IMG/VR virus record: IMGVR_UViG_3300032007_000041
Strand: one strand, 5' to 3'
DNA from: an uncultured virus (IMG/VR IMGVR_UViG_3300032007_000041)
Taxonomy: Duplodnaviria; Heunggongvirae; Uroviricota; Caudoviricetes
Length of the DNA stretch: 57,737 nucleotides
Position 1 is the stretch's first letter. The number at the start of each line of letters is the position of its first letter. The notes beneath the pieces were generated by a model. That model saw only the letters and a program-made list of their open reading frames with translations, was not told the origin of the DNA and made no database searches. A program made the position numbers and the translations under genes. Positions 37,573 to 57,737 of this stretch are shown here, piece by piece.

Positions 37573-37968
37573 TTAGATACCGAAGAATTTCATATATTCA
37601 TAGATAAAATCTTCTTTGTAATTATCTAAAATTTCTTCAAAGATTTTATGATGAATGAATTTATTATTTTTTTCTTTAATAAACTGATTTTTGATAGTTA
37701 TAAACGGAGTACAATTTAATTCCCTTAATGTAAAACAATGACCATTACTGTAATCTTTTTTTATAGAACACCATTGATTATAATGGACAGTATGTACATG
37801 TACACTATCGTCTGCAAAAAAAACATAGATGTAATAAGCAGATTTTTTCATTTCACATACATATCCAAAACAATATTGAATATCAAAATCATTGATATAA
37901 AATTTAAATGGAGTAAGTAAAGCACGGTTTTCTTTTTGAGATAAGAAAAAATTGGTTAATTTTCGCAT
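37573..37968 (-). CDS. small protein, C-terminal G-hydrophobic family
   Basis: Ends YEYMKFFGI*. Confidence 0.65.
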   Translation of the reverse strand: MRKLTNFFLSQKENRALLTPFKFYINDFDIQYCFGYVCEMKKSAYYIYVFFADDSVHVHTVHYNQWCSIKKDYSNGHCFTLRELNCTPFITIKNQFIKEKNNKFIHHKIFEEILDNYKEDFIYEYMKFFGI

Positions 37969-39422
37969 GGGAACAACAACTCACTTTTCGTTCTACCTGA
38001 AAGTTTAATCATCGTAGTAAGTTTCTTCTGATACTCATTAATCAGAAGATTGAGTTTCTTCACAATGGTTGCATGGTTATCAGAAACATGGTCTACCCAA
38101 TCATAATTAACTTTTGCTAAACCACAATTGGTTTTTACGAAATATGTATCATACTTATAGCTATCAGGTTTATATGTATCCTGTTTATCAATAACAACGT
38201 AACCGTGTTCAAATTCAAGGGTTTTAAACCCATTGACTTTAGCATAATCTTCCAAACGGAAAGTCGCTTCAGTAAGAGTATCGAATGCCAATTCCAATTC
38301 TGTATTATCAACGTTCTTTTTGTGTTTTGTTACGTTAAATCCACAATTAATAAACTCTTTTGGAGTCTGCGGAAGATACGTAGAACCATAACGATAGTAT
38401 CTCTTATTATATCTTCTGCTAAAAGCTATAGGAGTAGTCATGCGAACCGTAACGGAACTGTTATCAATAATGGGGACAGATATACGGTTATATTCCTTGC
38501 CTAAAATACGTTTTGCAAGAGCTTTCTGATGACGGTTCATTTTATCAAATCTCGTAAATAAAGTCATAAATGTATCATAGATGATTTTTGTTTCTTTGTT
38601 TACGTTTTTGATACGTTTCAGGACGTTGAATATATCAAATGGAGTAGTAAGAGTAAAATATGCCTCGCCAATTTTAATTCTGCAAAAAACATTAGGAACA
38701 TTAAGTGCATTTTTCCTTTTTACAGAAATAATGTATTTCTCTTCCTTACTTGCATTTTTGTCATAAGGATAAGAATTATATCTTCTATTACCAATATTAG
38801 GAGAAGCACTATCATGAATAACGTTAAATAAAGACATAATAATACCATCGTTTTTATGATAATAGTAAAGAGATTTAAAAATATCATCTTTATTAATATC
38901 ATTATGAGTATAGTCATATCCAAAATCTTTATCCTTATTTACGAGCTTGTAAAATTTGAAAGAATTTTTTGGTGTTTCAATATTATAGTAAGTTTTAAAA
39001 CCTGATTTAACATATACCTTTTTACCAAAAAAGTTATTAAAACAGACTAATGTATAACTACTATTAGATTTAGCCATACAATCATCAAGAATGAGAACAT
39101 CATATAATTCAATATTGCTATCAGGTTCGGTTTCATTAAAATGAATGTGGTCATAATCATAAGTAGAATAAGAGCCATTCCAACTACTTACGGAATAAGA
39201 CATATTATAAGTAGTGAAATAACCAATTTTATTCTGTACTTCACGTTCCAGAGTTTGAAGGTACTGTTCCGTATTTTTATTGTTAAGTTTATTTCCGTTA
39301 TATTTAACAACAACAATACGATTATTATACATAGCTGTAGAATACATGATACGATTTTTTGTAAAACTATGATTAAGAATATCTTCATTCAAATCAATTA
39401 AATATTTTCTAAATGATTTCAT
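37956..39422 (-). CDS. early hypothetical protein (paralog of 39558-40904)
   Basis: Shared IL..SFT, CFNNF.G, VRM.TPI.F, NGFK..F..G.VVI, TTM.K..G. Confidence 0.8.
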   Translation of the reverse strand: MKSFRKYLIDLNEDILNHSFTKNRIMYSTAMYNNRIVVVKYNGNKLNNKNTEQYLQTLEREVQNKIGYFTTYNMSYSVSSWNGSYSTYDYDHIHFNETEPDSNIELYDVLILDDCMAKSNSSYTLVCFNNFFGKKVYVKSGFKTYYNIETPKNSFKFYKLVNKDKDFGYDYTHNDINKDDIFKSLYYYHKNDGIIMSLFNVIHDSASPNIGNRRYNSYPYDKNASKEEKYIISVKRKNALNVPNVFCRIKIGEAYFTLTTPFDIFNVLKRIKNVNKETKIIYDTFMTLFTRFDKMNRHQKALAKRILGKEYNRISVPIIDNSSVTVRMTTPIAFSRRYNKRYYRYGSTYLPQTPKEFINCGFNVTKHKKNVDNTELELAFDTLTEATFRLEDYAKVNGFKTLEFEHGYVVIDKQDTYKPDSYKYDTYFVKTNCGLAKVNYDWVDHVSDNHATIVKKLNLLINEYQKKLTTMIKLSGRTKSELLFPCEN

Positions 39423-39466
39423 TGTTAATTAACCTCCCACTTTGTATTTCTTTCTTTGTTAATATT

Positions 39467-39495
39467 ATAATAACATATTTTGTTTCATTTGTCAA
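39467..39495 (-). promoter_or_regulatory. sigma70-type promoter
   Basis: TTGACA-17-TATTAT with TG extension. Confidence 0.7.
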
Positions 39496-39521
39496 TAGTT
39501 TTAATTAATTTTTTTAAATAA

Positions 39522-39547
39522 AATCCCTATCTACATAGATAGGGATT
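39522..39547 (-). terminator. intrinsic terminator
   Basis: AATCCCTATCTA/TAGATAGGGATT. Confidence 0.75.
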
Positions 39548-39557
39548 AGGGAAGGTA

Positions 39558-40904
39558 TCAATTTTCTTTTTTAATAAGACTATTAATAAATGAATTTACG
39601 TCTGTTCCACGCATTTTAGCCATTGTCGTGATATATTTATCGTATTCGTCACGCAAAGCGATTGTACGGCGATACAGAGAGTTTTTGGGGAGTTTCTTTT
39701 TATCTTTTGTCTCCCATTTAGCGGTAACTAAATCAATATTGGTAAACCCTGTAATACTATTAACGAAATAATCGTTGTTTTCTTCTTTCGTTCCTTTGAT
39801 TACAACTTTTCCGTTTTTAAAATCGACAACTTTAAATCCATTGTCTTTATACTGTTCAATATCAGGATAATTATAAATAAGAGATTCTACCAAAATATTG
39901 ATAGCTTTCATATCATTTTTATCAACGTCACCTGTAATTTCAAAACTATTGTCGTACGTCATTTTATCATCTTTACAGAAAGAATGAAAATAGTTCTTAT
40001 CTTTGTTAAAATAGTACTGTGTACTATCATCAAAGAAACCATAGTTGAAACCAATAGGCGTAATCATGCGTACACGCACATTACCATTATTGAAAACGTC
40101 ATTATGGATAGAGTCAAAATTCTTATTCAAGAATTTCTTACTGATTTCAATTTCTTCATTCGTCATTTTTTCAAAATCCTTAAACATCACTTCAAAATAT
40201 TTCTGAAGCGTATTCATATTTTTATCATCTTTCATGGCTCTAAAAATGAAGAAAATCTGTTCAATGACATAGATAGGATAAGGAACATTATCAATGATAA
40301 TTGTGCAATATAACTGCGGAATGATATATTTATTGTATTTGCACAATTTATTAAAAGCATCATCAAAATCATCTTCAGCACTATCCAAAATCATATCTTG
40401 TGGAATACGGAGTCCAAAGATAATAGCGTCATTTCCTTTACGATAAACAACAGATTTGTGAATATCAGGAGCACCATTAATACAGGTATCGACAAATGAA
40501 ACCTCGTTATTTTTTGCATTCAAATACATAGATTTGTATAAATACATATTATCGGAATAATTCTTATTTTTAAATGTGGTAAGTAGACCAATTTTGTGTC
40601 CCATAAAATTATTGAAACAATAAATTGAATAGCTCATACCATTAGAAGCATACATTTTATGCGAATTGATAGTCATAATATTGTACATTTCTACGTTGTC
40701 AATATTATTTTCTTCCATATTATTCACGAAGAAATCTCGTTCACTAGGCGTACAATTGTTTTTGTCGAATTGTCCAATTATAATATCATATTTGTTTTCT
40801 TCATCGCGAATATACTTATGAGTAATAGGATGTTCTGTGAAAGAATTTTCAAGAATTTCATCTTCAATTTGTGTAAACAACTTGTTCATTTTATTTACCT
40901 CCAA
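39558..40904 (-). CDS. early hypothetical protein (paralog of 37956-39422)
   Basis: See the shared motifs listed for 37956; probable start MNKLF after GGAGG. Confidence 0.8.
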   Translation of the reverse strand: MEVNKMNKLFTQIEDEILENSFTEHPITHKYIRDEENKYDIIIGQFDKNNCTPSERDFFVNNMEENNIDNVEMYNIMTINSHKMYASNGMSYSIYCFNNFMGHKIGLLTTFKNKNYSDNMYLYKSMYLNAKNNEVSFVDTCINGAPDIHKSVVYRKGNDAIIFGLRIPQDMILDSAEDDFDDAFNKLCKYNKYIIPQLYCTIIIDNVPYPIYVIEQIFFIFRAMKDDKNMNTLQKYFEVMFKDFEKMTNEEIEISKKFLNKNFDSIHNDVFNNGNVRVRMITPIGFNYGFFDDSTQYYFNKDKNYFHSFCKDDKMTYDNSFEITGDVDKNDMKAINILVESLIYNYPDIEQYKDNGFKVVDFKNGKVVIKGTKEENNDYFVNSITGFTNIDLVTAKWETKDKKKLPKNSLYRRTIALRDEYDKYITTMAKMRGTDVNSFINSLIKKEN

Positions 40905-40934: not shown

Positions 40935-40963
40935 ATATTAGCACATAATGTACTGTTTGTCAA
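40935..40963 (-). promoter_or_regulatory. sigma70-type promoter
   Basis: TTGACA-17-TAATAT with TG extension. Confidence 0.65.
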
Positions 40964-41012: not shown

Positions 41013-41498
41013 TTATAATCCATCTTGTATAATGAATAGTTTATAAATTTGTGCCATGTTTCTATGTTGTAAATAAAATTTAAACAAGTCTAATAATAAC
41101 TGTACATCTTCATTATCATAATAATGTTCTTGTAAAAATGTTAGCAATTCACCATATAATTTATCGTTAGAAATTGTATAATTGAAATTCTCCATAGTAG
41201 CTGGTTTTTTGAATTTCCAATTATCGGTAGAAAAGGTAAATGAACGTTCAGAATTCAGTTTATGTATTGTAATCAAATGAATTTTAATACTGTATTTTGC
41301 TACATTATAGTTTATAGTTGGTTTTTCCCTATAAGTTGTAAATTTAGAATAAGTATAGTCTAAACTGTAATCTATTTGAATTTCTATTGATGAACTGATA
41401 ACATGATGAATTAGTTTATATCCTGTAATTTGATAATCTTGAAACATGGAATTGTTTCTCACTTTGATTATATCAGAAGTTTCTATTTTATAATCCAT
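41013..41498 (-). CDS. small protein, C-terminal G-hydrophobic family
   Basis: Ends YKLFIIQDGL*. Confidence 0.65.
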   Translation of the reverse strand: MDYKIETSDIIKVRNNSMFQDYQITGYKLIHHVISSSIEIQIDYSLDYTYSKFTTYREKPTINYNVAKYSIKIHLITIHKLNSERSFTFSTDNWKFKKPATMENFNYTISNDKLYGELLTFLQEHYYDNEDVQLLLDLFKFYLQHRNMAQIYKLFIIQDGL

Positions 41499-41612: not shown

Positions 41613-42005
41613 TTATTTTTTTGACATTTTCATAAAATCTATAAAAGATTTTATATAGTTGTTGTAATAAGCAGGAAAATTATAAATAGATTGATACCAA
41701 ATAAAATGATTTTCACATTTTTCTTTGTAATTGACTAATATATCAACAATAAAATGTTGATTTGTAGAATAAAAAAAGTTTATATGATATTTATATTGGT
41801 TTATATATAGCAAGTATTCATAAGAAATATTCAACATGTTTACATTTGATGCTGGTGCAACAACAATTTTTTTTGTAAAATGAATAGAAATAACAAAATT
41901 ATATAATTTTATATATAGTTGATATAGTATCGTTATAATTGAATTAATGGGAGAATATATAATCATTAAAAATTGTAATATATCTTTCATAGTATTATAT
42001 TCCAT
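41613..42005 (-). CDS. hypothetical protein, hydrophobic N-terminus
   Basis: 130-aa ORF in operon order; may be truncated. Confidence 0.45.
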   Translation of the reverse strand: MEYNTMKDILQFLMIIYSPINSIITILYQLYIKLYNFVISIHFTKKIVVAPASNVNMLNISYEYLLYINQYKYHINFFYSTNQHFIVDILVNYKEKCENHFIWYQSIYNFPAYYNNYIKSFIDFMKMSKK

Positions 42006-42432
42006 GAAACATAATATATCGTTTATATAATAAATTCTTATCCATATATTTTAAGAAATATGTGGGATAGGTTTGTTTTATCATGTTTTGATATATGTGT
42101 GGATTATCCTCTGTATGAATAGAATATAATAAAGTATCAAGTGATTTTCGCATTTGATGTTTATTTAAATATGGTGGTTTCATAAATGATATAGACATAG
42201 CAACATTTTTTTCATAACATGATATATGTAAACGTATATGTATATCTAAATCTAATTTATTTACATATACAATATATTGAAAACGATATACATCGTATGT
42301 ATTTTTTGATATACTTGTATCAGTGGTATATATATCATATGTATCGCATAATAATATATATAATGATTTGGGTATTTGTGATTTGGGTATTTGTGATTTA
42401 AAATTTTTAACGGAAAGAAAATGCATAATCAC
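41995..42432 (-). CDS. small protein, C-terminal G-hydrophobic family
   Basis: Ends YKRYIMFHGI*; KSQIP tandem duplication. Confidence 0.65.
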   Translation of the reverse strand: MIMHFLSVKNFKSQIPKSQIPKSLYILLCDTYDIYTTDTSISKNTYDVYRFQYIVYVNKLDLDIHIRLHISCYEKNVAMSISFMKPPYLNKHQMRKSLDTLLYSIHTEDNPHIYQNMIKQTYPTYFLKYMDKNLLYKRYIMFHGI

Positions 42433-43031
42433 ATACCTACTTTCTGAATTGATTTTATAATAAATTTGTTGTAGTCTTTCTTTACATATTTATTGAAAGA
42501 ATATTTAATAAAACAGTAAATAAAAATATATTCACAAATCATACTAATTAAATCCATGTTTGTTGATTTAATATATGATTTTATAGATTTTGATAAAGCA
42601 TGATAATCCGTTTCAAAATTTATAGCATTGTTTTGGTCAAAACAATGTTTATTATATTTTATTTTGATATTTGGATAATAATATACTAAGTCATCTTTAA
42701 TATTAAAGTTTTTTAAATAAAAAAATACACTAGTAGATTTATTGAATAACAAAATGTTATAAAATTTTGTTGAAAGTAGATTGAAATCTTTATATTTATT
42801 CATATTCTTCTTATTAAAATCAAAATATTTATCTAGTCTTTTTATAGCTAATTCACAAATACCATATTTATCTTTCATATAAGTTAATTGTTCTGTTTCT
42901 TCATATATTTTAGAATATAGTATAATGTACAATAAATTAATTGGTAATGTAATAATATGAAATAATGGTATAATAATATTATACCATTTATTGATAATCC
43001 AATTAAATAGGTTCTTTAAATGCCAAAACAT
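42429..43031 (-). CDS. protein, C-terminal G-hydrophobic family
   Basis: Ends IIKSIQKVGM*. Confidence 0.55.
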   Translation of the reverse strand: MFWHLKNLFNWIINKWYNIIIPLFHIITLPINLLYIILYSKIYEETEQLTYMKDKYGICELAIKRLDKYFDFNKKNMNKYKDFNLLSTKFYNILLFNKSTSVFFYLKNFNIKDDLVYYYPNIKIKYNKHCFDQNNAINFETDYHALSKSIKSYIKSTNMDLISMICEYIFIYCFIKYSFNKYVKKDYNKFIIKSIQKVGM

Positions 43032-43417
43032 TTTGTCACATCATCCATTGTAAAATGAGGAAAATTTTTTAAAGCGTTTGGCTGAACTTCGTAATAAGAA
43101 GATAAATCGTGACGAATAAAATCAGTTAAAATATTCTTCATTTTGATATGCAGTTTATTTTTATTTTTTTCAGTCAAAAAATATTTATATGTTTTTGTCC
43201 AAAATTCATTCATGCAATATGTACAATAAAAATATTGTTTATCAAAATTATAATTAATTGTATATATTACATTAGTTGTATTATTAGAGATATGGTTATG
43301 ACCAAAAAGTTCAATAGTTTCTTTATTTGCATAAAAAATTTGTTGTTCCCATGTACTTGTTTCGTTCATTAAAGACGTAGTAATAAAACCTTTTTTGTAA
43401 ACGTTTTTTATAACCAT
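43016..43417 (-). CDS. small protein, C-terminal G-hydrophobic family (paralog of 43430)
   Basis: YTINY, NFPHFT..DVTKCFGI*. Confidence 0.7.
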   Translation of the reverse strand: MVIKNVYKKGFITTSLMNETSTWEQQIFYANKETIELFGHNHISNNTTNVIYTINYNFDKQYFYCTYCMNEFWTKTYKYFLTEKNKNKLHIKMKNILTDFIRHDLSSYYEVQPNALKNFPHFTMDDVTKCFGI

Positions 43418-43429
43418 AATTAGTACCTC

Positions 43430-43840
43430 TTATAAGCCAAAAGTTTTTACAATAATTTCTTTGGTAATGTGTGGAAAGTTCATAATATAATTTTTTGTAT
43501 ATCGAACTTTTTCATGATGATAATTTTTTAGTTTATCTACTAAAATATTTTCTAATTTTTTATAAAGAACTTTTTCTTTATTATAATCACAAATATATCT
43601 ATGTTCATCAAAACCACAATCATCTATTGCATATACCATATACAGAGTATTGTCATTATAATCAAAATTGATTGTATACTCTAAAATATGGTCACTTTCA
43701 GAATAAAAATAGCAATTGTACATAGAAAAATAGCAACTGTACATAGGAATGGATTGTTTAGAATGATAGATTTGTTGATTTTTCCATCTATCTATTTCTC
43801 TTTGTGATACAAATGTATTATGGTAATTGATAATAGGCAT
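43430..43840 (-). CDS. small protein, C-terminal G-hydrophobic family (paralog of 43016)
   Basis: YTINF, NFPHIT..IIVKTFGL*; AAGGAG RBS. Confidence 0.7.
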   Translation of the reverse strand: MPIINYHNTFVSQREIDRWKNQQIYHSKQSIPMYSCYFSMYNCYFYSESDHILEYTINFDYNDNTLYMVYAIDDCGFDEHRYICDYNKEKVLYKKLENILVDKLKNYHHEKVRYTKNYIMNFPHITKEIIVKTFGL

Positions 43841-43876
43841 TTGTGATTATCTCCTTTCTTTGTTTTTATATATTAT

Positions 43877-43906
43877 ATTATATCACTTATACAGTATATT
43901 TGTCAA
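43877..43906 (-). promoter_or_regulatory. sigma70-type promoter
   Basis: TTGACA-18-TATAAT with TG extension. Confidence 0.7.
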
Positions 43907-43923
43907 CATTTTTTTTAAATAAC

Positions 43924-43953
43924 AAATCCCTTATGTAAATACATAAGGGATTT
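43924..43953 (-). terminator. intrinsic terminator
   Basis: AAATCCCTTATGTA/TACATAAGGGATTT. Confidence 0.75.
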
Positions 43954-43956
43954 TTG

Positions 43957-44319
43957 TTATAATATCTGTGGCGAAAACCCCACGGGCTTGCCCGTGGGTA
44001 TTAGTGAGTTCGTAGAAGTTACATTAATTCGTTTACCATGAACAATTTCCTTTAAATTACGTGATACACCTGTATAATTTTCAAGTGGTTTTTGTTCATT
44101 TACTTGAAAATCGCTTGATACAGTTTGGTGAGAAAATGTTTTTGGAAGTGATAAACGATTTAACTCTGCACATATTCCATCAATGTAATCAATTTTTTCT
44201 TGCAGACGTGTTTGCAATAACTCTTTTTCTCTCTTTAATAACATATATTGAGTTTCTAAATTTTTATATTTAGCTTTTAATTCAATATATTTATCGTTTA
44301 TATCATATATATTACTCAT
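43957..44319 (-). CDS. coiled-coil hypothetical protein; 3' end reads through a GC-rich hairpin
   Basis: AAGGAG RBS; ends IPTGKPVGFSPQIL across CCCACGGGC-aa-GCCCGTGGG. Confidence 0.6.
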   Translation of the reverse strand: MSNIYDINDKYIELKAKYKNLETQYMLLKREKELLQTRLQEKIDYIDGICAELNRLSLPKTFSHQTVSSDFQVNEQKPLENYTGVSRNLKEIVHGKRINVTSTNSLIPTGKPVGFSPQIL

Positions 44320-46190: not shown

Positions 46191-46588
46191 TATTTATCTT
46201 CTCCAATCAATTCTCCATGATATGAAAGATAATTCAAACATTTATCAACGGCTTTAGCAAACTGCTTAGTGTTATTGTTTGTACAATGATTATAAGCATA
46301 TCCGTTTGCGTTTTTAAGAATTTTTGGAACGTCTTTCATAGATATAAATGCTTCACAGAATTTATCTTTTTCTGATTTGAATAAGCATCTATTATTATCG
46401 GTTACATCATCTACACGATAATTGACCAGCAATTTATCATTTTTTTGCGCAATATCAATCACATATTGATATCTAAATGCGTCCGATGTGAAGAAAAACA
46501 ATTGTCGAATGAGTTGACCATCAATATTCTTACTGTTACATTTGTGACGAAAAGTAACTTTGTAATTCATAACACTTATCCTTTCCAA
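46190..46588 (-). CDS. hypothetical protein
   Basis: 132-aa ORF coupled to the ligase start. Confidence 0.65.
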   Translation of the reverse strand: MERISVMNYKVTFRHKCNSKNIDGQLIRQLFFFTSDAFRYQYVIDIAQKNDKLLVNYRVDDVTDNNRCLFKSEKDKFCEAFISMKDVPKILKNANGYAYNHCTNNNTKQFAKAVDKCLNYLSYHGELIGEDK

Positions 46589-46938
46589 TATGACATATTA
46601 TTTGTATTCAGATATAGATAAATATAATTTTCATCTTTATCTACTGTAGGACTACAATTATCCATTTGACCTATATTTTTCATTATCAATGAATTGTGTA
46701 ATTCTGATGAAATACGCCAATACTCTGCATCGTTAATGAACGTAATATATGGGTCATGCAATGAATGTTGTTTGACTAAATTAGCAAATATAATCATAAT
46801 AATGTTTCGACAAAAAACCTCTAATGTATGGTTCAAGAAATATTTATGATTATCTGAATTGGCATCAAGAAACTCTTCCAATGATTGTTTAATCACTTTA
46901 ATGTATTTTTTGTTTTTTACAATAATTTCTACAATCAA
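46576..46938 (-). CDS. hypothetical protein
   Basis: 120 aa, AAGGTGG RBS. Confidence 0.6.
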   Translation of the reverse strand: MIVEIIVKNKKYIKVIKQSLEEFLDANSDNHKYFLNHTLEVFCRNIIMIIFANLVKQHSLHDPYITFINDAEYWRISSELHNSLIMKNIGQMDNCSPTVDKDENYIYLYLNTNNMSYWKG

Positions 46939-49106: not shown

Positions 49107-49135
49107 ATTGTAACATATTATTTGGAATTTGTCAA
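49107..49135 (-). promoter_or_regulatory. sigma70-type promoter
   Basis: TTGACA-17-TACAAT with TG extension. Confidence 0.75.
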
Positions 49136-49189: not shown

Positions 49190-49405
49190 TTATATTCCAT
49201 AAAAAATTATATAGTTAAATTTAATTATTTCTTCAGATTCTTTTTTAGGACAATTTGAATGTTGAGTACTAAAATTAGATGCTTTGCAACTCCAAACACT
49301 TTTATTATATATATTATATACTGTACCTACAGTATTATATAAATCATGTTCGTTTTGATTTATATATACTGTAACATCATTATTACAAGAATATTTCCAT
49401 TTCAT
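49190..49405 (-). CDS. small protein, C-terminal G-hydrophobic family
   Basis: Ends KFNYIIFYGI*. Confidence 0.55.
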   Translation of the reverse strand: MKWKYSCNNDVTVYINQNEHDLYNTVGTVYNIYNKSVWSCKASNFSTQHSNCPKKESEEIIKFNYIIFYGI

Positions 49406-49408
49406 CTT

Positions 49409-49756
49409 TCACATCCCCCAACAATATACAATATATGATTTTAAATTTTGAGGTGTTGTTACATTTTGTGATAATTCTTTAATTGTTTGTGTAATTTCGT
49501 GTGGATAACATTTTATATTCCTAACTTTTCTTAGATATATTGTATCATTACCATGATTATAAGCAAAGCAAAAAGTATTAGTATATTTCAAAGAGCACTC
49601 TTTAAATAAATTAATTAAAATTTTCCATTCTTTTTCAAAACAAACTATAATAGAGATTCTATATTCTGTATTCTGATAATGTCTCAAATCAAATCCACAT
49701 TGATATGAGTAACGTGGAAAAACATTATGAAAATTTGGCAAATAATAATAATACAT
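49409..49756 (-). CDS. small protein, C-terminal G-hydrophobic family
   Basis: Ends KSYIVYCWGM*. Confidence 0.65.
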   Translation of the reverse strand: MYYYYLPNFHNVFPRYSYQCGFDLRHYQNTEYRISIIVCFEKEWKILINLFKECSLKYTNTFCFAYNHGNDTIYLRKVRNIKCYPHEITQTIKELSQNVTTPQNLKSYIVYCWGM

Positions 49757-49759: not shown

Positions 49760-50140
49760 TTATAGTCCCCCATTATAGCATAGCATTAATTGTACAAAAT
49801 CATCAGTTATATTCAATTCATTTAGTACATTTTGTACCATTAATTTTGGATATTTATCACCTAATGTTGTAAAATCTCCTAATAGATAAGTAAAATTATT
49901 TTTCTGTTTGTGTTTAAATATACGCATATAAACATCATGTAATCTATCATCTTCGTTGGGGATAATTAAATCAACCAATCCAATAGCAAAAGGTTCATAT
50001 TGTTTTAAATATTCTATATTGTCTGTGTCATATAGATTATCAAATGATTGCATTGATAATCCTATATACATAGTTATATCGTTCTGTTTAAATAAAAAAT
50101 AATTATGTTCACAATTGGTAGTAATATGATATGAAAACAA
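49760..50140 (-). CDS. small protein, C-terminal G-hydrophobic family
   Basis: Ends QLMLCYNGGL*. Confidence 0.65.
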   Translation of the reverse strand: MFSYHITTNCEHNYFLFKQNDITMYIGLSMQSFDNLYDTDNIEYLKQYEPFAIGLVDLIIPNEDDRLHDVYMRIFKHKQKNNFTYLLGDFTTLGDKYPKLMVQNVLNELNITDDFVQLMLCYNGGL

Positions 50141-50506
50141 TTATAACCCAACTCCATATATATACACAAATGGTATTATATCATCTAAATTGTCTCTTAT
50201 AAATTTTGTTACAATATCTTTTTCTTCTTTTGTTTTAAATTTATATTTTTCTTTAAATTTTAATTGAATTTTGTTTTTTGAATTTAAAACCATTTTTAAA
50301 TGGAGGAACTGATAATCATTTAGCATAATATCATGATATTTTTTCCATCCCTTATAATTAATGGCTAAATTCATTTCGACAGGATAATGATAATATTCAA
50401 AATGAAATGATATGTTTGACACATTATTTTTAAAGCGATATTCTAATATATGATGACATTGTGAACACGTAATATTTTTATTATTTGGTATAAATGAAGT
50501 AACCAT
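50141..50506 (-). CDS. small protein, C-terminal G-hydrophobic family
   Basis: Ends PFVYIYGVGL*. Confidence 0.65.
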   Translation of the reverse strand: MVTSFIPNNKNITCSQCHHILEYRFKNNVSNISFHFEYYHYPVEMNLAINYKGWKKYHDIMLNDYQFLHLKMVLNSKNKIQLKFKEKYKFKTKEEKDIVTKFIRDNLDDIIPFVYIYGVGL

Positions 50507-50907
50507 ATTCCATTTCTCATAATTATATAAGTTAAAACGATTTGATGAAATGTTTTGTTTATATTACAAATATTCATATATTATTGAAATAATGTTTGTT
50601 GTGTAATTTCATTCAATGGATTATTTGGTAAATAATTAAATTTAAGTATGTCTAATTTAAATTGATTATTTTTAAATATTAGTGAACAAATAACGTCTTT
50701 AAATTCAGTTTTGTATTGACCTTGTTCATCTATTTTATAGACATTTAAACTTATTGTTCCAAAACTATTTTTATTAAATTTGCTAGAAAAAAATTTTTTA
50801 ACAAATTTATATAAATATATTGAAAATACAAATTTACACGATTTTGTTTTTGAAACAATAATAATATTGTCATTAGCAATATTTATATATGTATCAATGT
50901 ATTTCAT
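50503..50907 (-). pseudogene. family member with premature stop at 50581
   Basis: The frame continues past TAA to ...LTYIIMRNGI followed by TGG, where a TGA overlapping the next ATG would be expected. Confidence 0.55.
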
Positions 50908-51437
50908 AAACCACGTACCTTTATAATCTTATCTTTATATTTATCAAAAATTTCATTTCTACTATTATACATACGTTTACAAATATTTTGTAATAAATCG
51001 TTTGGGATGGCAGATAAATATTTTGTTAATCTGTTAATTTGATTTTCTGTTAAATAACACATGTATTGATTTCTGTTATATGCAGATTTAGGAGATTCAA
51101 TTTTAAAAGTATCATTATCAATAAAAATTGATAATTTAAAATCTACATATGATATACCAGTAATAGTTAGACAAAGCATAAGTGGAGTATCTTTGGTTAA
51201 TTTATATGGCAAAATATTATCAGAATCAAATTGATAAAATGGCAAAATATCATCAGAATCAAATGGATAAAAATGTAAATTGATACTTACAGAATTGTAA
51301 TTGTTAAAAATAGTCCAATGTTCTGTTTTAAATGGAGCACAATAATATCTGTTTAAATCTTCACCTGTTTGTTTTTCTATTATAAAATTGTCAATAGACC
51401 TAAGATTTTTCAAAATCCACACCTTCTTATTGCCCAT
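50904..51437 (-). CDS. protein, C-terminal G-hydrophobic family
   Basis: Ends KIIKVRGL*; internal FDSD.ILP duplication. Confidence 0.65.
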   Translation of the reverse strand: MGNKKVWILKNLRSIDNFIIEKQTGEDLNRYYCAPFKTEHWTIFNNYNSVSINLHFYPFDSDDILPFYQFDSDNILPYKLTKDTPLMLCLTITGISYVDFKLSIFIDNDTFKIESPKSAYNRNQYMCYLTENQINRLTKYLSAIPNDLLQNICKRMYNSRNEIFDKYKDKIIKVRGL

Positions 51438-51844
51438 TCCGATACTTTTTTAAAGTTAAAAATTTTAGAGTTATTTAATAATTGTCTGATTGGTTTAATT
51501 TCATCTTGTGTTATATCACTTAACTTATCAATATCATATCCTTCTTTAATACCATCTTCAAACATATCATAATAGGATAATTTTATAATTAATTTTTTCG
51601 TATCTTTGGTTTCATATTGCGCATCACTTTTTTTATCAATAATAACATATACATTAAAATATCTATATTCAGAAGGGTATGGTATTAAATTATCGTTGAT
51701 AATATTTAGATTATCTTCTACAAATTTTAAATAAATATTATAATTTTGATAAGGTACATAAATATCATATGATTTTGGATTTCTTGTACCATGATAAAGA
51801 AGCCATTTATTATAGTATTTTTCCCATTTTTTATAATAATCCAT
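51410..51844 (-). CDS. small protein, C-terminal G-hydrophobic family
   Basis: Ends EWAIRRCGF*; AAGGAG RBS. Confidence 0.65.
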   Translation of the reverse strand: MDYYKKWEKYYNKWLLYHGTRNPKSYDIYVPYQNYNIYLKFVEDNLNIINDNLIPYPSEYRYFNVYVIIDKKSDAQYETKDTKKLIIKLSYYDMFEDGIKEGYDIDKLSDITQDEIKPIRQLLNNSKIFNFKKVSEWAIRRCGF

Positions 51845-51884: not shown

Positions 51885-51924
51885 AGTTTATCAAAAAACA
51901 GGTGTTTTGTCAACACCTGTTTTT
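51885..51924 (-). promoter_or_regulatory. overlapping terminator hairpin and sigma70 promoter
   Basis: Minus strand AAAAACAGGTGTT-gacaa-AACACCTGTTTTT; TTGACA spans the loop, then 17 nt to TAAACT with TG extension. Confidence 0.7.
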
Positions 51925-52420
51925 AAATTCCATGATTAATATTGATAAGTTCAAGCAATTTATATTTGCAGAAATTATTGATAAAAAAATCTTTTATATT
52001 TATATCTGTTTCTGTTTTATCAAAACTTTCATATAATGAACTCGGTCGTGGATTTGGTAAGTCCCCAACGTATGTATCATAATAATCTAATTGTATTTCT
52101 CCATCATCTGTTCGGTGAATGGCATAATTAAAAATATCAATTTGTTTTACAATTGATAAATTATCATTAATATACTCGATTTTAATTTTTGTTTTAACTG
52201 TTTCCAAATGTTTAAAGTATCTTTCTAACCCTAGAAATGGAGTACTATAAAAAATTGTAATCTTAATATTAGAATTATTTGTTTTGTTTTGGAAATGAAA
52301 TATTGAAGTTAGTTTGTTATAATTAGAAATGTGATGTGTATCTATACAAAATGAACAACTGTGAGATAAGTAGTATTTATTATTAAAATTGTTTAATGTC
52401 ATCATTTCCTCATATCCCAT
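51923..52420 (-). CDS. small protein, C-terminal G-hydrophobic family
   Basis: Ends LELININHGI*. Confidence 0.65.
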   Translation of the reverse strand: MGYEEMMTLNNFNNKYYLSHSCSFCIDTHHISNYNKLTSIFHFQNKTNNSNIKITIFYSTPFLGLERYFKHLETVKTKIKIEYINDNLSIVKQIDIFNYAIHRTDDGEIQLDYYDTYVGDLPNPRPSSLYESFDKTETDINIKDFFINNFCKYKLLELININHGI

Positions 52421-52432: not shown

Positions 52433-52816
52433 TCACATCCCATTTGTATAAACATACATATCCTTAATTAAATTTGTTGGGATTGAATTAATCATTTTTT
52501 CTATACGTATAGCATCTTTATCCATAATACTTTTTCTATCTTTAGGGAATATGTTAAAAGTAGGGATTTCTTGAAAAACAAAATTAAAGCACAGTTGATG
52601 TAAACATTTGATTTTCCTTCTGCATGATTGTTTATAGGTCGCGTTTAATCGAATATTCCCATTTTCATTAAATGATACACAAATGTTTAAATTGTTATTT
52701 TGATTAATTGTATATTGATTCCCGCCATAATATCCATTCTCATTTGACATTAAATGATAATAGTCATACTTAACTAGAGTAGAAATTTTTTCAAGAAACA
52801 TCGTTATACACCCCAT
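52433..52816 (-). CDS. small protein, C-terminal G-hydrophobic family
   Basis: Ends KDMYVYTNGM*; similar to 52804 and 53194. Confidence 0.65.
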   Translation of the reverse strand: MGCITMFLEKISTLVKYDYYHLMSNENGYYGGNQYTINQNNNLNICVSFNENGNIRLNATYKQSCRRKIKCLHQLCFNFVFQEIPTFNIFPKDRKSIMDKDAIRIEKMINSIPTNLIKDMYVYTNGM

Positions 52817-53178
52817 ATCATGATATACATTGCTTTTCTATCATCTTGTGGTATATTATCAATTAATTTGTTTGCTCTAATATACCATCTTTTAATATAG
52901 TCTTTATCGCCATCGAAATTAAATTGATATGGTTCAATAAAAATTATATCTATATTATGATTATCATTTTGATGGAAATATACAAGTTTATCCTTCACAC
53001 CTTTAACACAACAACGATTGCTTTTCGTTTTCCATGCGTCAATGTGGACATATCTTTCATTAAGAATTCGAATTAGATATGTATTTTGGTGAATATTATC
53101 TTTAAATAAAAAATCTTTGCCAAATGAAGAATGACTGTATTGTGTTGATTTTAGATTGTTTATATGATGTAATTCCAT
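52804..53178 (-). CDS. small protein, C-terminal G-hydrophobic family (paralog of 53194)
   Basis: NRCCVKG..W..R..K.ID.IPQ..KAMYIMIWGV*. Confidence 0.7.
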   Translation of the reverse strand: MELHHINNLKSTQYSHSSFGKDFLFKDNIHQNTYLIRILNERYVHIDAWKTKSNRCCVKGVKDKLVYFHQNDNHNIDIIFIEPYQFNFDGDKDYIKRWYIRANKLIDNIPQDDRKAMYIMIWGV

Positions 53179-53193: not shown

Positions 53194-53565
53194 TCATAAT
53201 CCATAATTAATTATATATGCTTTTTGCACAATATTCTGTGGTAATATATCAACTATTTTACGTACACGTTTAAACCAATGCTGTTTAAATTCACTATAAC
53301 TATAGTATCCTGAATTTTCTCCATGACATATATTGTTATCTTTTAAATAAAGTTTTAATTCCCCATCATGAAAAATTGGTTTAAATTCGGTACAAGCTAA
53401 ACCTCTAATGCAAACTCGATTTGTGTTACTCATATGAGCATTAAAACGAACATTGAATTTATTGTTTAAGTATATTTCATAGTCATGACGATGTTCTTCA
53501 TCAATAATTTTGATATTACAAGCTCCAAATCTATGATATGCTTCAATTGAACGAATATAAATCAT
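53194..53565 (-). CDS. small protein, C-terminal G-hydrophobic family (paralog of 52804)
   Basis: NRVCIRG..WFKR..KIVDILPQ..KAYIINYGL*. Confidence 0.7.
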   Translation of the reverse strand: MIYIRSIEAYHRFGACNIKIIDEEHRHDYEIYLNNKFNVRFNAHMSNTNRVCIRGLACTEFKPIFHDGELKLYLKDNNICHGENSGYYSYSEFKQHWFKRVRKIVDILPQNIVQKAYIINYGL

Positions 53566-53589: not shown

Positions 53590-53618
53590 ATTATATCAAA
53601 ATTTTTTATTTTTGTCAA
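53590..53618 (-). promoter_or_regulatory. consensus sigma70 promoter
   Basis: TTGACA-17-TATAAT with TG extension. Confidence 0.8.
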
Positions 53619-53635: not shown

Positions 53636-53662
53636 AAACGACTATCAACTAGATAGTCGTTT
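53636..53662 (-). terminator. intrinsic terminator
   Basis: AAACGACTATC/GATAGTCGTTT. Confidence 0.7.
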
Positions 53663-54014
53663 ATAATCCAAAAGATATAATATAAAATTGTTTTAAACAA
53701 CGTTTTTTAACAAATCTTATGATTTTTTTTGATGTTTTAAAATCCATAGGCACATCATATTTAAATGCAGCTTGTTTTGTAATATCCATAATTTTAATTC
53801 CTTTTGAAGTTAAACGTACTTTATAATGACTACTATAATAAAAATTATATCTAATTATTAATATAAAATCTCTTTTATTATTATGACTATAATAATAGTC
53901 TATATTTAAAATACCATCTTTATATGTTAATTGAAATTGACTATATGTTTCATTGAATATTTCTATATATTTCGTTTTAATATGTTGAAAACGAAAATAT
54001 GAATTTATATTCAT
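53661..54014 (-). CDS. small protein, C-terminal G-hydrophobic family
   Basis: Ends KQFYIISFGL*. Confidence 0.65.
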   Translation of the reverse strand: MNINSYFRFQHIKTKYIEIFNETYSQFQLTYKDGILNIDYYYSHNNKRDFILIIRYNFYYSSHYKVRLTSKGIKIMDITKQAAFKYDVPMDFKTSKKIIRFVKKRCLKQFYIISFGL

Positions 54015-54364
54015 ATACCTCTACCTATCGTTACCATTTTAAAAATTTCTTCTTTATAATTTCTATATATTTTTTTTGCTTTTATAACATAATCCTTGTC
54101 AAAAATTTTTTCTATAAACCATATTGTTCTATACTTATCGTTTTTACCAACAATATTAGCATTAATTTTAATGCCATCTTTATTTGTTATATCAAAATGG
54201 AAGCTATCTGCAACATTATGATGAAAATTTTCATAGCAATAAGAACTACTTGTATTGACTCTAATATGTATGCGATAAGTTTCACCATGATATGTAATTT
54301 CAGTTGTATATAACGATAAATGGTCATTGTATATTATAGTACCATATTTTGTTATTTTGCTCAA
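54011..54364 (-). CDS. small protein, C-terminal G-hydrophobic family
   Basis: Ends FKMVTIGRGI*. Confidence 0.65.
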   Translation of the reverse strand: MSKITKYGTIIYNDHLSLYTTEITYHGETYRIHIRVNTSSSYCYENFHHNVADSFHFDITNKDGIKINANIVGKNDKYRTIWFIEKIFDKDYVIKAKKIYRNYKEEIFKMVTIGRGI

Positions 54365-54367: not shown

Positions 54368-54850
54368 TTATAATCCTTCTGTATAAGTAATAATGTTTTG
54401 AATAAATCGTTGACCATCATTTATTAAAAAATCATCAAAAAAAATACAAATGTTTTTATATTGATTGATGTTTTGCTTGTGATTTCTCATATTTATATAG
54501 TATTTTTGTTTTTTATAATTGGTTATACTAAAATTTCCTTTTCGATATGGTATTTCTATTTTTTGTGATATAAATTTTAATCCATTTTTAATTTTTATAT
54601 CATACGCTCTATGAGTATAGTGAATATCTTTGTCTATTATAGATAAAACAAGAGTTTTATGGTTATTATGTTTCATTTCACCATAACTGTTCATGATATA
54701 ATCATTGGCAATTGTAATATCTATATTAGCCTTTTTGTCTTGATGAATAATATCAAACCGATAATGATATGTATCATGATATTTTTGTGAACACTTATTT
54801 CTATATACAATTTTAACATTTTGTTCTTCAAATGTCCATTGTTTTTGCAT
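54368..54850 (-). CDS. small protein, C-terminal G-hydrophobic family
   Basis: Ends QNIITYTEGL*. Confidence 0.65.
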   Translation of the reverse strand: MQKQWTFEEQNVKIVYRNKCSQKYHDTYHYRFDIIHQDKKANIDITIANDYIMNSYGEMKHNNHKTLVLSIIDKDIHYTHRAYDIKIKNGLKFISQKIEIPYRKGNFSITNYKKQKYYINMRNHKQNINQYKNICIFFDDFLINDGQRFIQNIITYTEGL

Positions 54851-54961
54851 TAAAATTCACCACTCTTTATGTTAAAAGTTTTATCTTCTACAATAAATAT
54901 ATAATAAAAATTGACTTATTATTTATTTACTATAACTATTAATTATAGTTTAAATAATAAG

Positions 54962-55096: not shown

Positions 55097-55100
55097 TTAT

Positions 55101-55355
55101 TGTCAATGCGTCTATCAGTCTAACGATGACCGTATTGGAGCTATAAATATTCAACACCTCGGAACTATGTGGATTTCCGGAGATAACCATCCTCGCTACG
55201 AAAGAATAACAACTGCTTCGGAGTAAACTCCTTAGCAAAGCGGGTGTTGTTAGCCACCCGACGATGTAGGCGGATTTAGGGAGACATCTTGGATGTCGTT
55301 AGTACCTATGCAATTCCGACTTACAAGCTCCCGACTTTAGTCGGGAGTAGTTGAC
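55101..55355 (+). mobile_element. tnpB: IS200/IS605 remnant: 3' end of tnpB, omega-RNA region and right end
   Basis: GC-richer island encoding CQCVYQSNDDRIGAINI...* (55101-55226, RuvC-III-like); ends CTCCCGACT-tt-AGTCGGGAG-TAGTTGAC. Confidence 0.8.
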
Positions 55356-55357
55356 TG

Positions 55358-55702
55358 TTAAATGCCTTTTGTATATGATAAAAATAATTTTGCATAATTG
55401 ATAATTTCATTTTTATATTTAGCATAATATTTTATTATACTCTGTCGTTCTTTTTCAGGAATATCGTTAAAATCATCATAATTGTAAATTTTTCCTTGGT
55501 TGTTTATATCTAAAGTCATGTAATATTCACAATCTTTTACAAATACATCAACAACACAACAAGTTTCATATGAACAATCTTCTGTGACCTCATATTCTTC
55601 ATATTGCAATATTAATTGTATATTATCATTGATATAAATTGAAGCATATTTATCTATAAATGGATTTGTTAGATAATATTTTGTCTGTGTTATCATTTCC
55701 AT
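55358..55702 (-). CDS. small protein, C-terminal G-hydrophobic family
   Basis: Ends KLFLSYTKGI*; AAGGGGG RBS. Confidence 0.7.
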   Translation of the reverse strand: MEMITQTKYYLTNPFIDKYASIYINDNIQLILQYEEYEVTEDCSYETCCVVDVFVKDCEYYMTLDINNQGKIYNYDDFNDIPEKERQSIIKYYAKYKNEIINYAKLFLSYTKGI

Positions 55703-55724
55703 TTTTTATTCCCCCTTTTATTTA

Positions 55725-55753
55725 AATATACCATATATTATATTCATTGTCAA
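55725..55753 (-). promoter_or_regulatory. sigma70-type promoter
   Basis: TTGACA-17-TATATT with TG extension. Confidence 0.7.
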
Positions 55754-55772
55754 CAGTTTTAAATATATTTTT

Positions 55773-55801
55773 AAAAGGCTACTATTGAATAGTAGCCTTT
55801 T
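55773..55801 (-). terminator. intrinsic terminator
   Basis: AAAAGGCTACTATT/AATAGTAGCCTTTT. Confidence 0.7.
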
Positions 55802-56041
55802 TATAATCAGTATAAAATCACATATATATCTGCAATTTTTCTGTATGGTAAAGAATATTGTCCAACAAAATTATATATGGATTAAATAATTGATAATATA
55901 GTGTCTTGTATAACACACAATCACTTCATTTGTTGATTTGCTCGATTTAAATTCTATAACTTCTTTTTCCCATTTTCAAACGAAATATGTAAATTATTAT
56001 TTAAAATTTTGCAAAACAAATAATTAATCATAATATCATCA
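55801..56041 (-). pseudogene. decayed G-hydrophobic family gene
   Basis: Ends ...IADIYVILY-TGA-TTA-TAA, i.e. GGA>TGA at the Gly position; several upstream stops. Confidence 0.5.
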
Positions 56042-56419
56042 TTATATACCATTAACTAATATAAAGAATTGTTTTGTATTAACTAAAAATTCATCGTGAT
56101 ATTTAGATACAATTTGTCTAGTTATTTTTTGTGTTCGTTCACCAATAACTTTTGTAAATTTTTCTCTATTAAATTCCATATGATATATATCATTAATAAT
56201 GTAAGTTTGTTTTTCTGTACGACCCAATATAATATTTATTTCTAATCCACTATGTATTTTAAACATATATTTTAAACGCTCATTGTATGCAAATGTTAAA
56301 CGAACATTATCCTTAATATAATATTCGTAAAAATCATCAAATATATACGGATTTATATCTTTATGTGGAATAGTATATTTGCATTGTTTTAATGTAAAAT
56401 CTTTCATAATCCACCACAA
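56042..56419 (-). CDS. small protein, C-terminal G-hydrophobic family
   Basis: Ends KQFFILVNGI*. Confidence 0.65.
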   Translation of the reverse strand: MWWIMKDFTLKQCKYTIPHKDINPYIFDDFYEYYIKDNVRLTFAYNERLKYMFKIHSGLEINIILGRTEKQTYIINDIYHMEFNREKFTKVIGERTQKITRQIVSKYHDEFLVNTKQFFILVNGI

Positions 56420-56730
56420 CGAATATAAAAATTTTTCATTAAATCAGTTAAAATTTGTTTATGCGGAATAAATTTATCATCTAATTCATCTATATTTCTT
56501 TTATTTTTTATGTCAAAAACATCTAAAAAATTTTTAACTGTAATAACAGTAAGATAATTTTTTTGATGATTACAAAATCCAATTTTAAAATCACTATCCA
56601 TATTATAATAGAACAGTACTTCTAAATTCCAATTATAATAAATTTCTCTAATTTCATAAAAACTTTTATTTATTATTACTCGTTCTTTTAATACCCAAGG
56701 CATGATGTTACATTCCTTCCCATATAACAC
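56404..56730 (-). CDS. small protein, C-terminal G-hydrophobic family
   Basis: Ends KNFYIRCGGL*. Confidence 0.65.
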   Translation of the reverse strand: MLYGKECNIMPWVLKERVIINKSFYEIREIYYNWNLEVLFYYNMDSDFKIGFCNHQKNYLTVITVKNFLDVFDIKNKRNIDELDDKFIPHKQILTDLMKNFYIRCGGL

Positions 56731-56905
56731 GACATCGTTTTGTTAATTCTATTAATTCAGATTGATATTTATCTATAATTGGCATTAAATACTTTAGTTG
56801 TTTAGAATGTATATATGATAATTTGTTATTACAAACTGTAAAATCAATTTCCCCATAGCCTAAAATGTTTCTTTTTTCCTTTATATATGATTGTTTACAA
56901 TCCAC
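56708..56905 (-). CDS. short protein, C-terminal G-hydrophobic family
   Basis: Ends KRCRVIWEGM*. Confidence 0.55.
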   Translation of the reverse strand: MDCKQSYIKEKRNILGYGEIDFTVCNNKLSYIHSKQLKYLMPIIDKYQSELIELTKRCRVIWEGM

Positions 56906-57233
56906 TTTGATAAGTAACTAACATTCTATAATAATCCATGATTTTGTTATAATTCTTTTCTACATAATTTTTAATTTCATCATAATAAATGTGTTTTTTA
57001 TCATTGCTGTCTATATAAAATATGTTATCATCTAAACTATGTTTTAATACATATGTATATCTGTATTTATTTATTTTCAATGTGATGTGTTTTTTGTAGG
57101 TAAATTTTTCATAAACAATTTCAATTTGATAGTCATTGTAACTATCAAAAATATTCATTTTATTAATAGAACAAAAATTACCTTTTTTGTTTATTATAAT
57201 TTTATTACTTTGAAATCGCCCCATAATTATCAC
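56895..57233 (-). CDS. small protein, C-terminal G-hydrophobic family
   Basis: Ends RMLVTYQSGL*. Confidence 0.65.
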   Translation of the reverse strand: MIIMGRFQSNKIIINKKGNFCSINKMNIFDSYNDYQIEIVYEKFTYKKHITLKINKYRYTYVLKHSLDDNIFYIDSNDKKHIYYDEIKNYVEKNYNKIMDYYRMLVTYQSGL

Positions 57234-57597
57234 ATCCCAAAAGAATATACTAGTTTTTTCTGATTCGTTTCAGATTATGTTTATATATTTTTTTTGTAAA
57301 TTTTATACATGATATTTAATTTGCCATCTGTTAAATCAAAATTCGCTTCACCACGTAATGTTTTAAATTTACAAGAACGTTCTGAATAGAACTTTGTAAT
57401 TGGTTCGTTAATATGTAATGTTGAATTTTCAAATACACTAGTTTCTTGAATGTCAAAATGACCTAATTGAGATAAAAATCTGTATCTAAGTATTCTTGTT
57501 CATCATGATTAGTATAAATAGATATACCAATATTTGTATAATCTGATAAAGTAACCGATGTTTTATCCCAATTATCATTATAAAAATCTATATCCAT
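57230..57597 (-). pseudogene. frameshifted G-hydrophobic family gene
   Basis: Starts MDIDFYNDNW, is broken by stops and shifts; final frame KKLVYSFGM* is reached by one extra A in an A6 run. Confidence 0.5.
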
Positions 57598-57613
57598 TAA
57601 ATTTTTCATTTTT

Positions 57614-57736
57614 CTATATCCCAAATTCAATTATTATATCTTTTTGTATATCTTTCTTAATTCTGTTATATTTTGATAAATAATTTGCTAATTCTATAGT
57701 TGCTCTTTTTAAATAAAATTGATATTCATCATCTGT
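57614..57736 (-). CDS. partial G-hydrophobic family gene (runs off the right edge)
   Basis: Open frame TDDEYQFYLKR...IQKDIIIEFGI*. Confidence 0.6.
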   Translation of the reverse strand, partial: TDDEYQFYLKRATIELANYLSKYNRIKKDIQKDIIIEFGI

Positions 57737-57737
57737 G

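Follow-up and report, generated by a model that had tools for sequence, protein, structure and literature searches.

The right-hand part of a 57,737-nucleotide stretch of DNA from an uncultured virus (IMG/VR IMGVR_UViG_3300032007_000041; this whole stretch is called the window below) carries an array of small minus-strand genes whose products differ widely in sequence and share one ending, a glycine followed by a single hydrophobic residue (Leu, Ile, Met, Val or Phe) directly before the stop codon. We give a rough probability of 0.55 to the reading that these genes form a lineage-specific, tandemly expanded and fast-diverging early-gene family, with a putative role in host takeover or anti-defence, in which the constant tail closes a shared fold. 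Most probably the tail caps a C-terminal helix common to the members; it would be mainly a structural element, not a targeting tag. The window corresponds to bases 100862-158598 of a phage contig of 281,186 bp with 28% G+C; positions are those of the window unless they are given as genome positions.

The Gly-hydrophobic ending is confirmed as real and far above chance. Indeed, a crude gene call on the whole contig (longest open reading frames (ORFs) of at least 45 amino acids (aa), chosen greedily without overlap) gave 414 genes, of which 40 have the ending G-[LIMVF]-stop where composition predicts 5.4. Between genome positions 138 and 165 kb, the ending occurs in 33 of 49 genes, against 7 of 365 outside (Fisher p 6.5e-30, binomial p 2e-50), and 2000 residue shuffles of the 49 array-region genes gave a mean of 0.48 endings and a maximum of 4, the original prediction having called for a genome-wide count and a shuffled null. 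All 24 endings listed in that prediction were found at their positions among minus-strand ORFs of at least 50 aa, as was the ending EFGI of the gene cut by the window edge (genome 158475-158930). Its other counts are close to ours: 24 of about 35 main genes in the right-hand region (24 of 36 in the crude call), from 49190 on, 18 of 19 main genes (18 among 21 minus-strand ORFs; the ending is missing from 50581-50907 and from two very small ORFs, 48 and 55 aa long), and none of the main genes in the left part (1 of 44, a 69-aa ORF at 20115-20324 that is probably not a gene). The 33 same-strand members are packed in about 27 kb (genome 138-165 kb), the array continuing for about 6.3 kb beyond the right end of the window, up to genome 164949. 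With four likely satellite members (genome 191721, 195677, 245635 and 245964), the family amounts to about 37 members, or roughly 9% of the phage genes. A further gene with a G-hydrophobic ending (genome 234461) was dropped from the family, as it encodes a DUF7004 protein.

The conserved pattern extends upstream of the last two residues. A right-anchored logo was built from 38 sequences, including the later-dropped gene at genome 234461. Position -2 is G in 38/38 and position -1 is L (18), I (10), M (6), F (2) or V (2), both being fixed by the selection of the sequences; position -6 is I (17), T (6), V (6), C (2), S (2), A (2), M (1) or N (1). Information content is highest at -2 (G), -1 (hydrophobic), -6 (I/V/T), -7, -5 (Y/I/L) and -13 (N/D/H). 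The lysine and Y/F/I-rich run noticed earlier ahead of the ending was recovered, with K at -10 in 15 of 38 sequences and Y/I/L, I/T/V and Y/I/L at -7, -6 and -5, respectively. When a hidden Markov model (HMM) of the last 22 residues was searched against the 414 crude genes, it matched nothing convincingly, either inside the genes or outside the family, where the best score was 6.4 bits.

This ending is constrained at the level of amino acids. The distance from the stop codon to the next same-strand gene ranges from -28 to +1591 nt among the members. Sixteen of the 37 lie at least 21 nt (21-1591) from that gene, several of them preceding hairpin terminators, and their GG therefore cannot be a Shine-Dalgarno sequence; eight further members overlap the next ORF by at least 11 nt, if the longest-ORF starts hold. 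The comparison was extended to L002, a 20-kb part of a related 29.8-kb contig with a syntenic array, in which 31 of 41 crude ORFs have the ending. In 21 orthologue pairs (49-100% identity between the window phage and L002), the terminal Gly, whose loss in orthologues would have spoken against the original proposal, is kept in 21/21, while the Gly codon differs synonymously in five pairs and the stop codon in five; the last residue is swapped within L/I/M/V/F in six of the 21. Since both gene sets of this comparison had been selected by the motif, a motif-free tblastn search into L002 was made, and all 22 of the 22 hits covering the C-terminus of a member end in G-hydrophobic-stop. Homologues with an intact C-terminus from large protein collections also have a G-hydrophobic ending. 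The array genes are real and under purifying selection, because the pooled ratio of non-synonymous to synonymous substitution rates (dN/dS) between the two phages is 0.28 (range 0.10-0.68).

The alternative that the ending is a nucleotide signal, with the GG of the Gly codon acting as a Shine-Dalgarno sequence for the gene that follows, or GGNNTNTRA as a promoter or termination-context element, is largely refuted by these data and very improbable. In its favour, 13 of the 37 members are at Shine-Dalgarno distance, the next start lying between 4 nt upstream and 15 nt downstream of the stop, and GGA is over-represented among the terminal Gly codons (21/37, vs 34% of Gly codons genome-wide). Besides the gene distances and overlaps given above, it is opposed by the genes of the left 37 kb, which have Shine-Dalgarno sequences in other frames without such an ending, by the synonymous Gly codon changes and the stop codons that differ in 5/21 pairs while Gly stays, and by the motif, which never leaves the reading frame or position -2. 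As had been noticed earlier, each of the four Gly codons occurs (GGA 21, GGT 9, GGG 4 and GGC 3 among the 37 members), and the claim that the motif is not merely a ribosome-binding site for the following gene is borne out by the gene distances, the synonymous codons and the motif-free hits.

The two arrays differ by gain and loss of genes: nine L002 members have no counterpart in the window phage and some members of the window phage have none in L002. At 53661-54014, the DNA is identical to that of the L002 orthologue (dN = dS = 0), vs a dS of 0.16-0.63 for the neighbours, which suggests that this one gene was exchanged recently between the phages. Furthermore, the L002 orthologue of 56042-56419 is split (L002:4526-6400) into ORFs of 78 aa (N-terminal) and 61 aa (C-terminal), and between the two halves lies a 438-aa ORF with a Cas12f1-like TNB domain (TnpB-like); this looks like the insertion of a mobile element into an array gene.

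The bodies of the members are highly divergent while the C-terminal element is constant. Only a few member pairs are detected by BLASTP at E<1e-3 and these are mostly neighbours, as tandem duplication predicts. Iterated HMM searches from six seeds recruit at most one paralogue. An all-versus-all hhalign comparison, limited to 19 multi-sequence clusters (171 of the possible 820 pairs), gave weak, collinear links between subfamilies that involve mostly the C-terminal halves (best P 6.8e-5; 7/171 pairs with P<0.01). Together with the clustering of the members in a region of host-type promoters and terminators, this agrees with the expanded family and the divergent bodies that had been proposed. 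The original prediction had recognised no described system, and no database family was matched here: for the 24 members of the window, no Pfam family passed its cut-off (E up to 0.1), and PHROGs gave no match for any member.

Relatives are equally scarce in larger collections. Megablast of the 20-kb region and tblastn of a neighbouring 737-aa protein against 50,697 phage records gave no match, a search for related loci in viral contigs with 53194-53565 found none, and the ESM Atlas gave no usable match. A whole-family profile (68 sequences) searched against 5.8 billion proteins gave 845 candidates, none with E<=1, this profile being too weak; a subfamily profile found only seven proteins among 1.84 billion representatives; and profile and homologue searches from two members, in libraries drawn from about 15 billion predicted proteins, found only a handful of relatives. 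No Rfam family matched the window at gathering thresholds, and in the open-access literature searched no phage family defined by a G-hydrophobic C-terminus is described.

Two members were modelled with AlphaFold2 at moderate to low confidence, and the models predict a common fold with a C-terminal helix. The model of 53194-53565, made from a 10-sequence subfamily alignment (predicted local distance difference test score (pLDDT) 70, predicted template-modelling score 0.59), has seven strands (residues 4-74) and helices at 92-106 and 110-121, followed by G122 and L123. That of 54011-54364, made from the 68-sequence family alignment (pLDDT 58), has six strands and a helix at 90-114, followed by R115, G116 and I117. 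The two proteins share no detectable sequence similarity, yet they show the same predicted layout, a beta-meander sheet and then the C-terminal helix; the blocks that form the C-terminal helices score among the highest of each model (72-78 and 74), and in both models the helix stops 1-2 residues ahead of the Gly. Averaged over the family, hydrophobicity is most strongly periodic at 100 degrees, the helical value, in -30..-14 as well as in -13..-1, and this periodicity reaches back to about -26. Weak structural neighbours common to both models are p32/Mam33/gC1qR (Z 5.3-6.5), polo-box, YceB and ToxS (Z <=6.7), all of which are sheets crossed by a C-terminal helix. Foldseek gave no match at E <=0.001 in PDB and BFVD.

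The tail resembles a known way of ending a helix. Helix C-capping by the Schellman loop was reportedly described by Aurora and Rose in 1994 and 1998. In this loop, Gly occupies C' and the side chain of C'' packs on C3, the model peptide being ...XAAXGX (PMC9951308). Likewise, the array tails have a hydrophobic C3, Gly at C' and a hydrophobic C'' right after the predicted helix: in both models (pLDDT 70 and 58) the helix runs up to the residue before the Gly, Gly with a hydrophobic C'' is found throughout (G in 38/38 sequences, by selection; G-hydrophobic in 22/22 motif-free hits), and C3 is mostly I, T or V. The N/D/H at -13, I/V/T at -6, G at -2 and hydrophobic residue at -1, together with a helix that ends before the Gly, therefore point to an N-capped helix with a Schellman C-cap. 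Unlike a family, the Schellman cap is a generic structural motif, characterised by a left-handed Gly conformation and by 6-to-1 and 5-to-2 backbone hydrogen bonds, and it does not require the chain to end at C'', as the array chains always do.

On this basis, the following course of events is proposed. One small-protein family would have been amplified in tandem in one phage lineage and would then have diverged fast, its members keeping a common layout in which an antiparallel beta-meander sheet at the N-terminus leads into C-terminal helices. The tail would be the last helix, with an N-cap N/D/H at -13, some ten helical residues and buried hydrophobic residues at -11, -8, -7, -6 and -5. It would be closed by a Schellman cap, with the invariant Gly (-2) as C' and the last, hydrophobic residue (-1, C'') folded back onto the hydrophobic residue at C3 (-6). 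The tail would be kept as it closes the hydrophobic core, which would leave the sheet surface free to diverge. From short units that have their own host-type promoter and terminator, the host RNA polymerase would express the genes early, and the variable surfaces may bind different host or defence targets; we infer the geometry of the cap, the timing of expression and the part played in host takeover or anti-defence.

The original prediction had described a variable N-terminal domain carrying a constant tag that could dock on a hub, act as a targeting or degradation signal or be clipped. Its family expansion and constant C-terminus stand. A free tag on unrelated domains does not agree with the two models, in which unlike sequences give the same predicted layout and the tail is the end of the C-terminal helix. 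That prediction had itself set out that a Gly acting only as a helix cap would reduce the finding to an ordinary paralogue expansion, and this outcome matches the models and the conserved positions. As the models are only moderately confident (pLDDT 70 and 58), docking, degradation and clipping become less likely than a helix cap but stay credible.

Several points weigh against the helix-cap family. Only two members were folded, at moderate-to-low confidence, and the backbone angles of the Gly and the C3-C'' contact are putative; no solved fold matches convincingly, all Z being under 8 and Foldseek E >=0.16; and the Chou-Fasman parameters favour strand over helix at -7..-3 (Pb 1.27 vs Pa 0.97). 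Orthologue tails (82% for the last 13 residues) are barely more conserved than the whole proteins (49-100%), so the special status of the tail shows mainly across paralogues. A structural cap alone does not obviously explain the absence of any extension past the last residue. Finally, the RNA-library contigs cover structural genes too and so do not establish transcription or its timing, and the early timing and the anti-host role are putative.

In a rival reading, the free G-hydrophobic-COOH end and the hydrophobic run before it would be a handle read by another protein, docking all members on one host or phage hub, acting as a non-polar C-terminal degradation signal that shortens the life of early proteins, or being clipped after the Gly. 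The invariant chain-end position in 68 members of two phages and in the 22/22 motif-free orthologous hits, the bodies diverged beyond detection and the strongly non-polar last five residues all suit such a handle. The phage also encodes potential processing enzymes, namely an M16 peptidase (1658-2878), a DUF2201 metallopeptidase and two SprT-like proteases. However, both models place the tail inside a domain helix, where it is not free, and the conserved helical-periodic pattern of about 26 residues is longer than known C-terminal peptide ligands. Pfam searches of 181 of the 185 crude phage genes of at least 150 aa (four locus-border genes, the smaller genes outside the array and the host being left aside) found no PDZ, tail-specific protease, Atg4-like, ThiF/E1, JAB or UBC family, which argues against the Atg8/ubiquitin-like clipping once suggested. 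We consider a handle unlikely, if still credible. Its strongest form, in which one host or phage factor (hub, protease or unfoldase) reads the exact G-hydrophobic-COOH end of about 37 early proteins, is slightly more doubtful; if true, one unchanging tail would let the phage deliver, time or clip a whole diversified repertoire of proteins for host takeover or anti-defence. The terminal Ala-Ala or LAA-type ending that defines an ssrA-like non-polar degron is not found, all members ending in G-[LIMVF] instead. A glycyl-radical site served by the many radical-SAM enzymes of the phage was considered and dropped: such motifs are known from positions deep within proteins, not from their ends, and there is nothing to connect the two sets of genes.

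In another alternative, the C-terminal helix would be an oligomerisation module through which paralogues form homo- or hetero-oligomers with their variable sheets outward. A constant hydrophobic helix on a variable body would be suited to this, and the weak structural neighbours p32/Mam33 are homotrimers. We regard it as improbable, given that the fold matches are weak (Z under 7) and that the family is mostly basic, unlike the acidic p32. A homodimer prediction with two copies of 53194-53565 and the subfamily alignment scored 0.12, vs a mark of 0.42, which speaks neither for nor against oligomers.

The capped-helix family was also compared with known proteins. GABARAP-type and other ubiquitin-like tails have an aromatic-Gly-X C-terminus, and several members similarly end in F/Y-G-hydrophobic after a Y/I-rich run, a likeness confined to the last few residues. 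The two modelled members differ in being predicted, at moderate-to-low confidence, as a meander of 6-7 strands with C-terminal helices and not as a beta-grasp; no ubiquitin-like protein is among the structural matches listed for the two models, at the same confidence, and none was matched in Pfam or PHROGs by the 24 window members. The p32/gC1qBP/Mam33 proteins are among the top weak neighbours of both models (7te3_A, Z 5.7 and 6.2; 1yqf_A, Z 4.4 and 6.5) and have an antiparallel sheet crossed by C-terminal helices. The best Z values for this fold, 5.7 and 6.5, with a root-mean-square deviation of 4.3-4.6 over 96-104 residues, are below the guide value of 8 and perhaps reflect a common arrangement only. 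In contrast to these proteins, the members have no Pfam MAM33 match and are mostly basic (28/37 with an isoelectric point (pI) above 8), whereas p32 is acidic. As regards genome organisation, tandem arrays of more than 30 paralogous, 'very similar' genes are reported for jumbo phages G and 121Q by Hua et al. 2017 (PMC5646251), a paper cited in a jumbo-phage review (PMC13282480). The likeness lies in a jumbo genome built partly by tandem duplication. The present phage also has more than 30 tandem genes of probable common origin (33 members at genome 138-165 kb), to which their common tail and predicted layout and the resemblance between adjacent genes point. Compared by description, the difference is that the members are 'very similar' in G and 121Q, whereas in the present array similarity is undetectable for most pairs, nothing but the C-terminal helix and its cap having survived. 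The array thus matches those of G and 121Q in scale but is diverged almost beyond recognition.

The members found in the window are all encoded on the minus strand. From left to right, they begin with a 131-aa protein ending in FFGI (37573..37968), then a hairpin at 37541-37567; a 161-aa protein ending in QDGL (41013..41498), with a terminator-like hairpin at 41014-40989; a 145-aa protein ending in FHGI (41995..42432), a weak paralogue of 56895-57233 (31% over 71 aa); a 200-aa protein ending in KVGM (42429..43031), the sole member with a transmembrane-like N-terminal segment; a 133-aa protein ending in CFGI (43016..43417), a paralogue of the adjoining gene; and this adjoining gene itself (43430..43840; 136 aa, TFGL), with a 12/12 consensus promoter upstream (43906-43877). 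The part from 49190 on comprises proteins of 71 aa (49190..49405, FYGI; terminator-like hairpin at 49188-49164), 115 aa (49409..49756, CWGM; CWGI in the L002 orthologue), 126 aa (49760..50140, NGGL), 121 aa (50141..50506, GVGL), 177 aa (50904..51437, VRGL; VFGL in L002) and 144 aa (51410..51844, RCGF; RCGL in L002; promoter-like site at 51913-51885). These are followed by a 165-aa member (51923..52420, NHGI), whose next gene is 78 nt away, and by three members of one subfamily, namely 52433..52816 (127 aa, TNGM), 52804..53178 (124 aa, IWGV; IWGM in L002) and 53194..53565 (123 aa, NYGL; 12/12 promoter at 53618-53590), the last being one of the modelled members. Next come 53661..54014 (117 aa, SFGL; terminator-like hairpin at 53662-53636), the other modelled member at 54011..54364 (117 aa, GRGI), 54368..54850 (160 aa, TEGL) and 55358..55702 (114 aa, TKGI), which is acidic (pI 4.4) and has a promoter-like site at 55753-55725. 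The array of the window ends with 56042..56419 (125 aa, VNGI), the gene split by the TnpB-like ORF in L002; 56404..56730 (108 aa, CGGL); 56708..56905 (65 aa, WEGM), whose L002 orthologue is 49% identical and ends in RNGI; 56895..57233 (112 aa, QSGL), whose database homologues end in SGL or NGI; and the 3' part of the edge gene (57614..57737, EFGI), which leaves the window and is 151 aa in full. The median length of the 37 members is 127 aa, and most of them are basic and apparently cytoplasmic. Another gene of the region (46576-46938, 120 aa) ends in ...YLYLNTNNMSYWKG, with Gly as the very last residue, and its L002 orthologue keeps this ending; it may be a degenerate member of the family without the final hydrophobic residue.

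Short units of the array are bracketed by promoters of the form TTGACA-17-TGnTATAAT, perfect or near-perfect, and by hairpin terminators. A near-consensus sigma-70-type promoter with a TG-extended -10 lies at 39467..39495 on the minus strand, and further sites lie at 40935-40963, 43877-43906, 49107-49135, 51885-51913, 53590-53618 and 55725-55753; these seven sites break the array up into short units that run from promoter to terminator. Promoters of this kind cluster at genome 140-270 kb, with few in the structural half, which fits early transcription by the host polymerase. Contigs of four metatranscriptome runs match array genes exactly, and neighbouring structural genes as well. In the interval 43339-44005, which holds the gene 43430-43840 and its 12/12 promoter, the summed contig depth is 730 and 583 in two of the four RNA runs, vs about 5-80 nearby, a depth that cannot rank genes. 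Within the array region, two large paralogues (37956-39422 and 39558-40904; 488 and 448 aa, 27% identity over about 396 aa) each have their own promoter-terminator unit; both end in ...EN and have no Pfam or PHROG match. RNA-library contigs of three runs start near 39549-39561, beside a terminator-like hairpin.

The 281-kb contig encodes portal-like, capsid-like, intein-carrying terminase/helicase-like and tail-fibre-like proteins and is therefore that of an uncultivated jumbo phage; DNA methylases, an NAD-dependent ligase, an anaerobic ribonucleotide reductase and many radical-SAM enzymes are also encoded. Gene content, TG-extended -10 promoters and strong GGAGG-type ribosome-binding sites indicate that its host is probably a low-GC anaerobe, and near-identical DNA is present in bovine-gut metagenome runs of several studies. 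Recoding of TAG was considered and dropped, since TAG ends 24 of the 414 crude genes and there is no sign of another genetic code. A 1569-aa ORF (2985-7694) with PHROG matches to the terminase large subunit and to helicase-like proteins is broken by two intein-type insertions (Hint/Intein_splicing with LAGLIDADG domains); the anaerobic ribonucleotide reductase NrdD (genome 218-223 kb) is also split and intein-carrying, with HNH endonuclease genes near it. A sigma-70 region 4 protein (986-1645) adjoins the M16 insulinase-type peptidase (1658-2878), both being unusual phage cargo. At genome 40-97 kb, at least seven radical-SAM/Fer4_12 proteins are found among GT1, GT2 and GT8 glycosyltransferases, a carbamoyltransferase, a UDP-glucose dehydrogenase and a DegT aminotransferase, possibly as a cluster for hypermodification of sugars or DNA. 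Genome 260 kb encodes a TET-associated glycosyltransferase. A microbial-type PARG lies close to a NADAR domain protein at genome 264.9-270.4 kb; the pair are candidate reversers of ADP-ribosylation, which would suggest counter-defence.

Roughly one gene in eleven of this rumen-associated jumbo phage (about 9%) belongs to a single undescribed family, which neither Pfam nor PHROGs contains. It illustrates how strongly genes duplicated in tandem can drift apart and still retain a small structural element in common, and its exact chain end provides a simple signature by which such families can be found where sequence searches fail. Should the tail prove to be read by another protein, phages would have a shared targeting signal of a new kind. 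Should host targets be bound by the variable sheets, the array would be a ready library of early effectors for screening.

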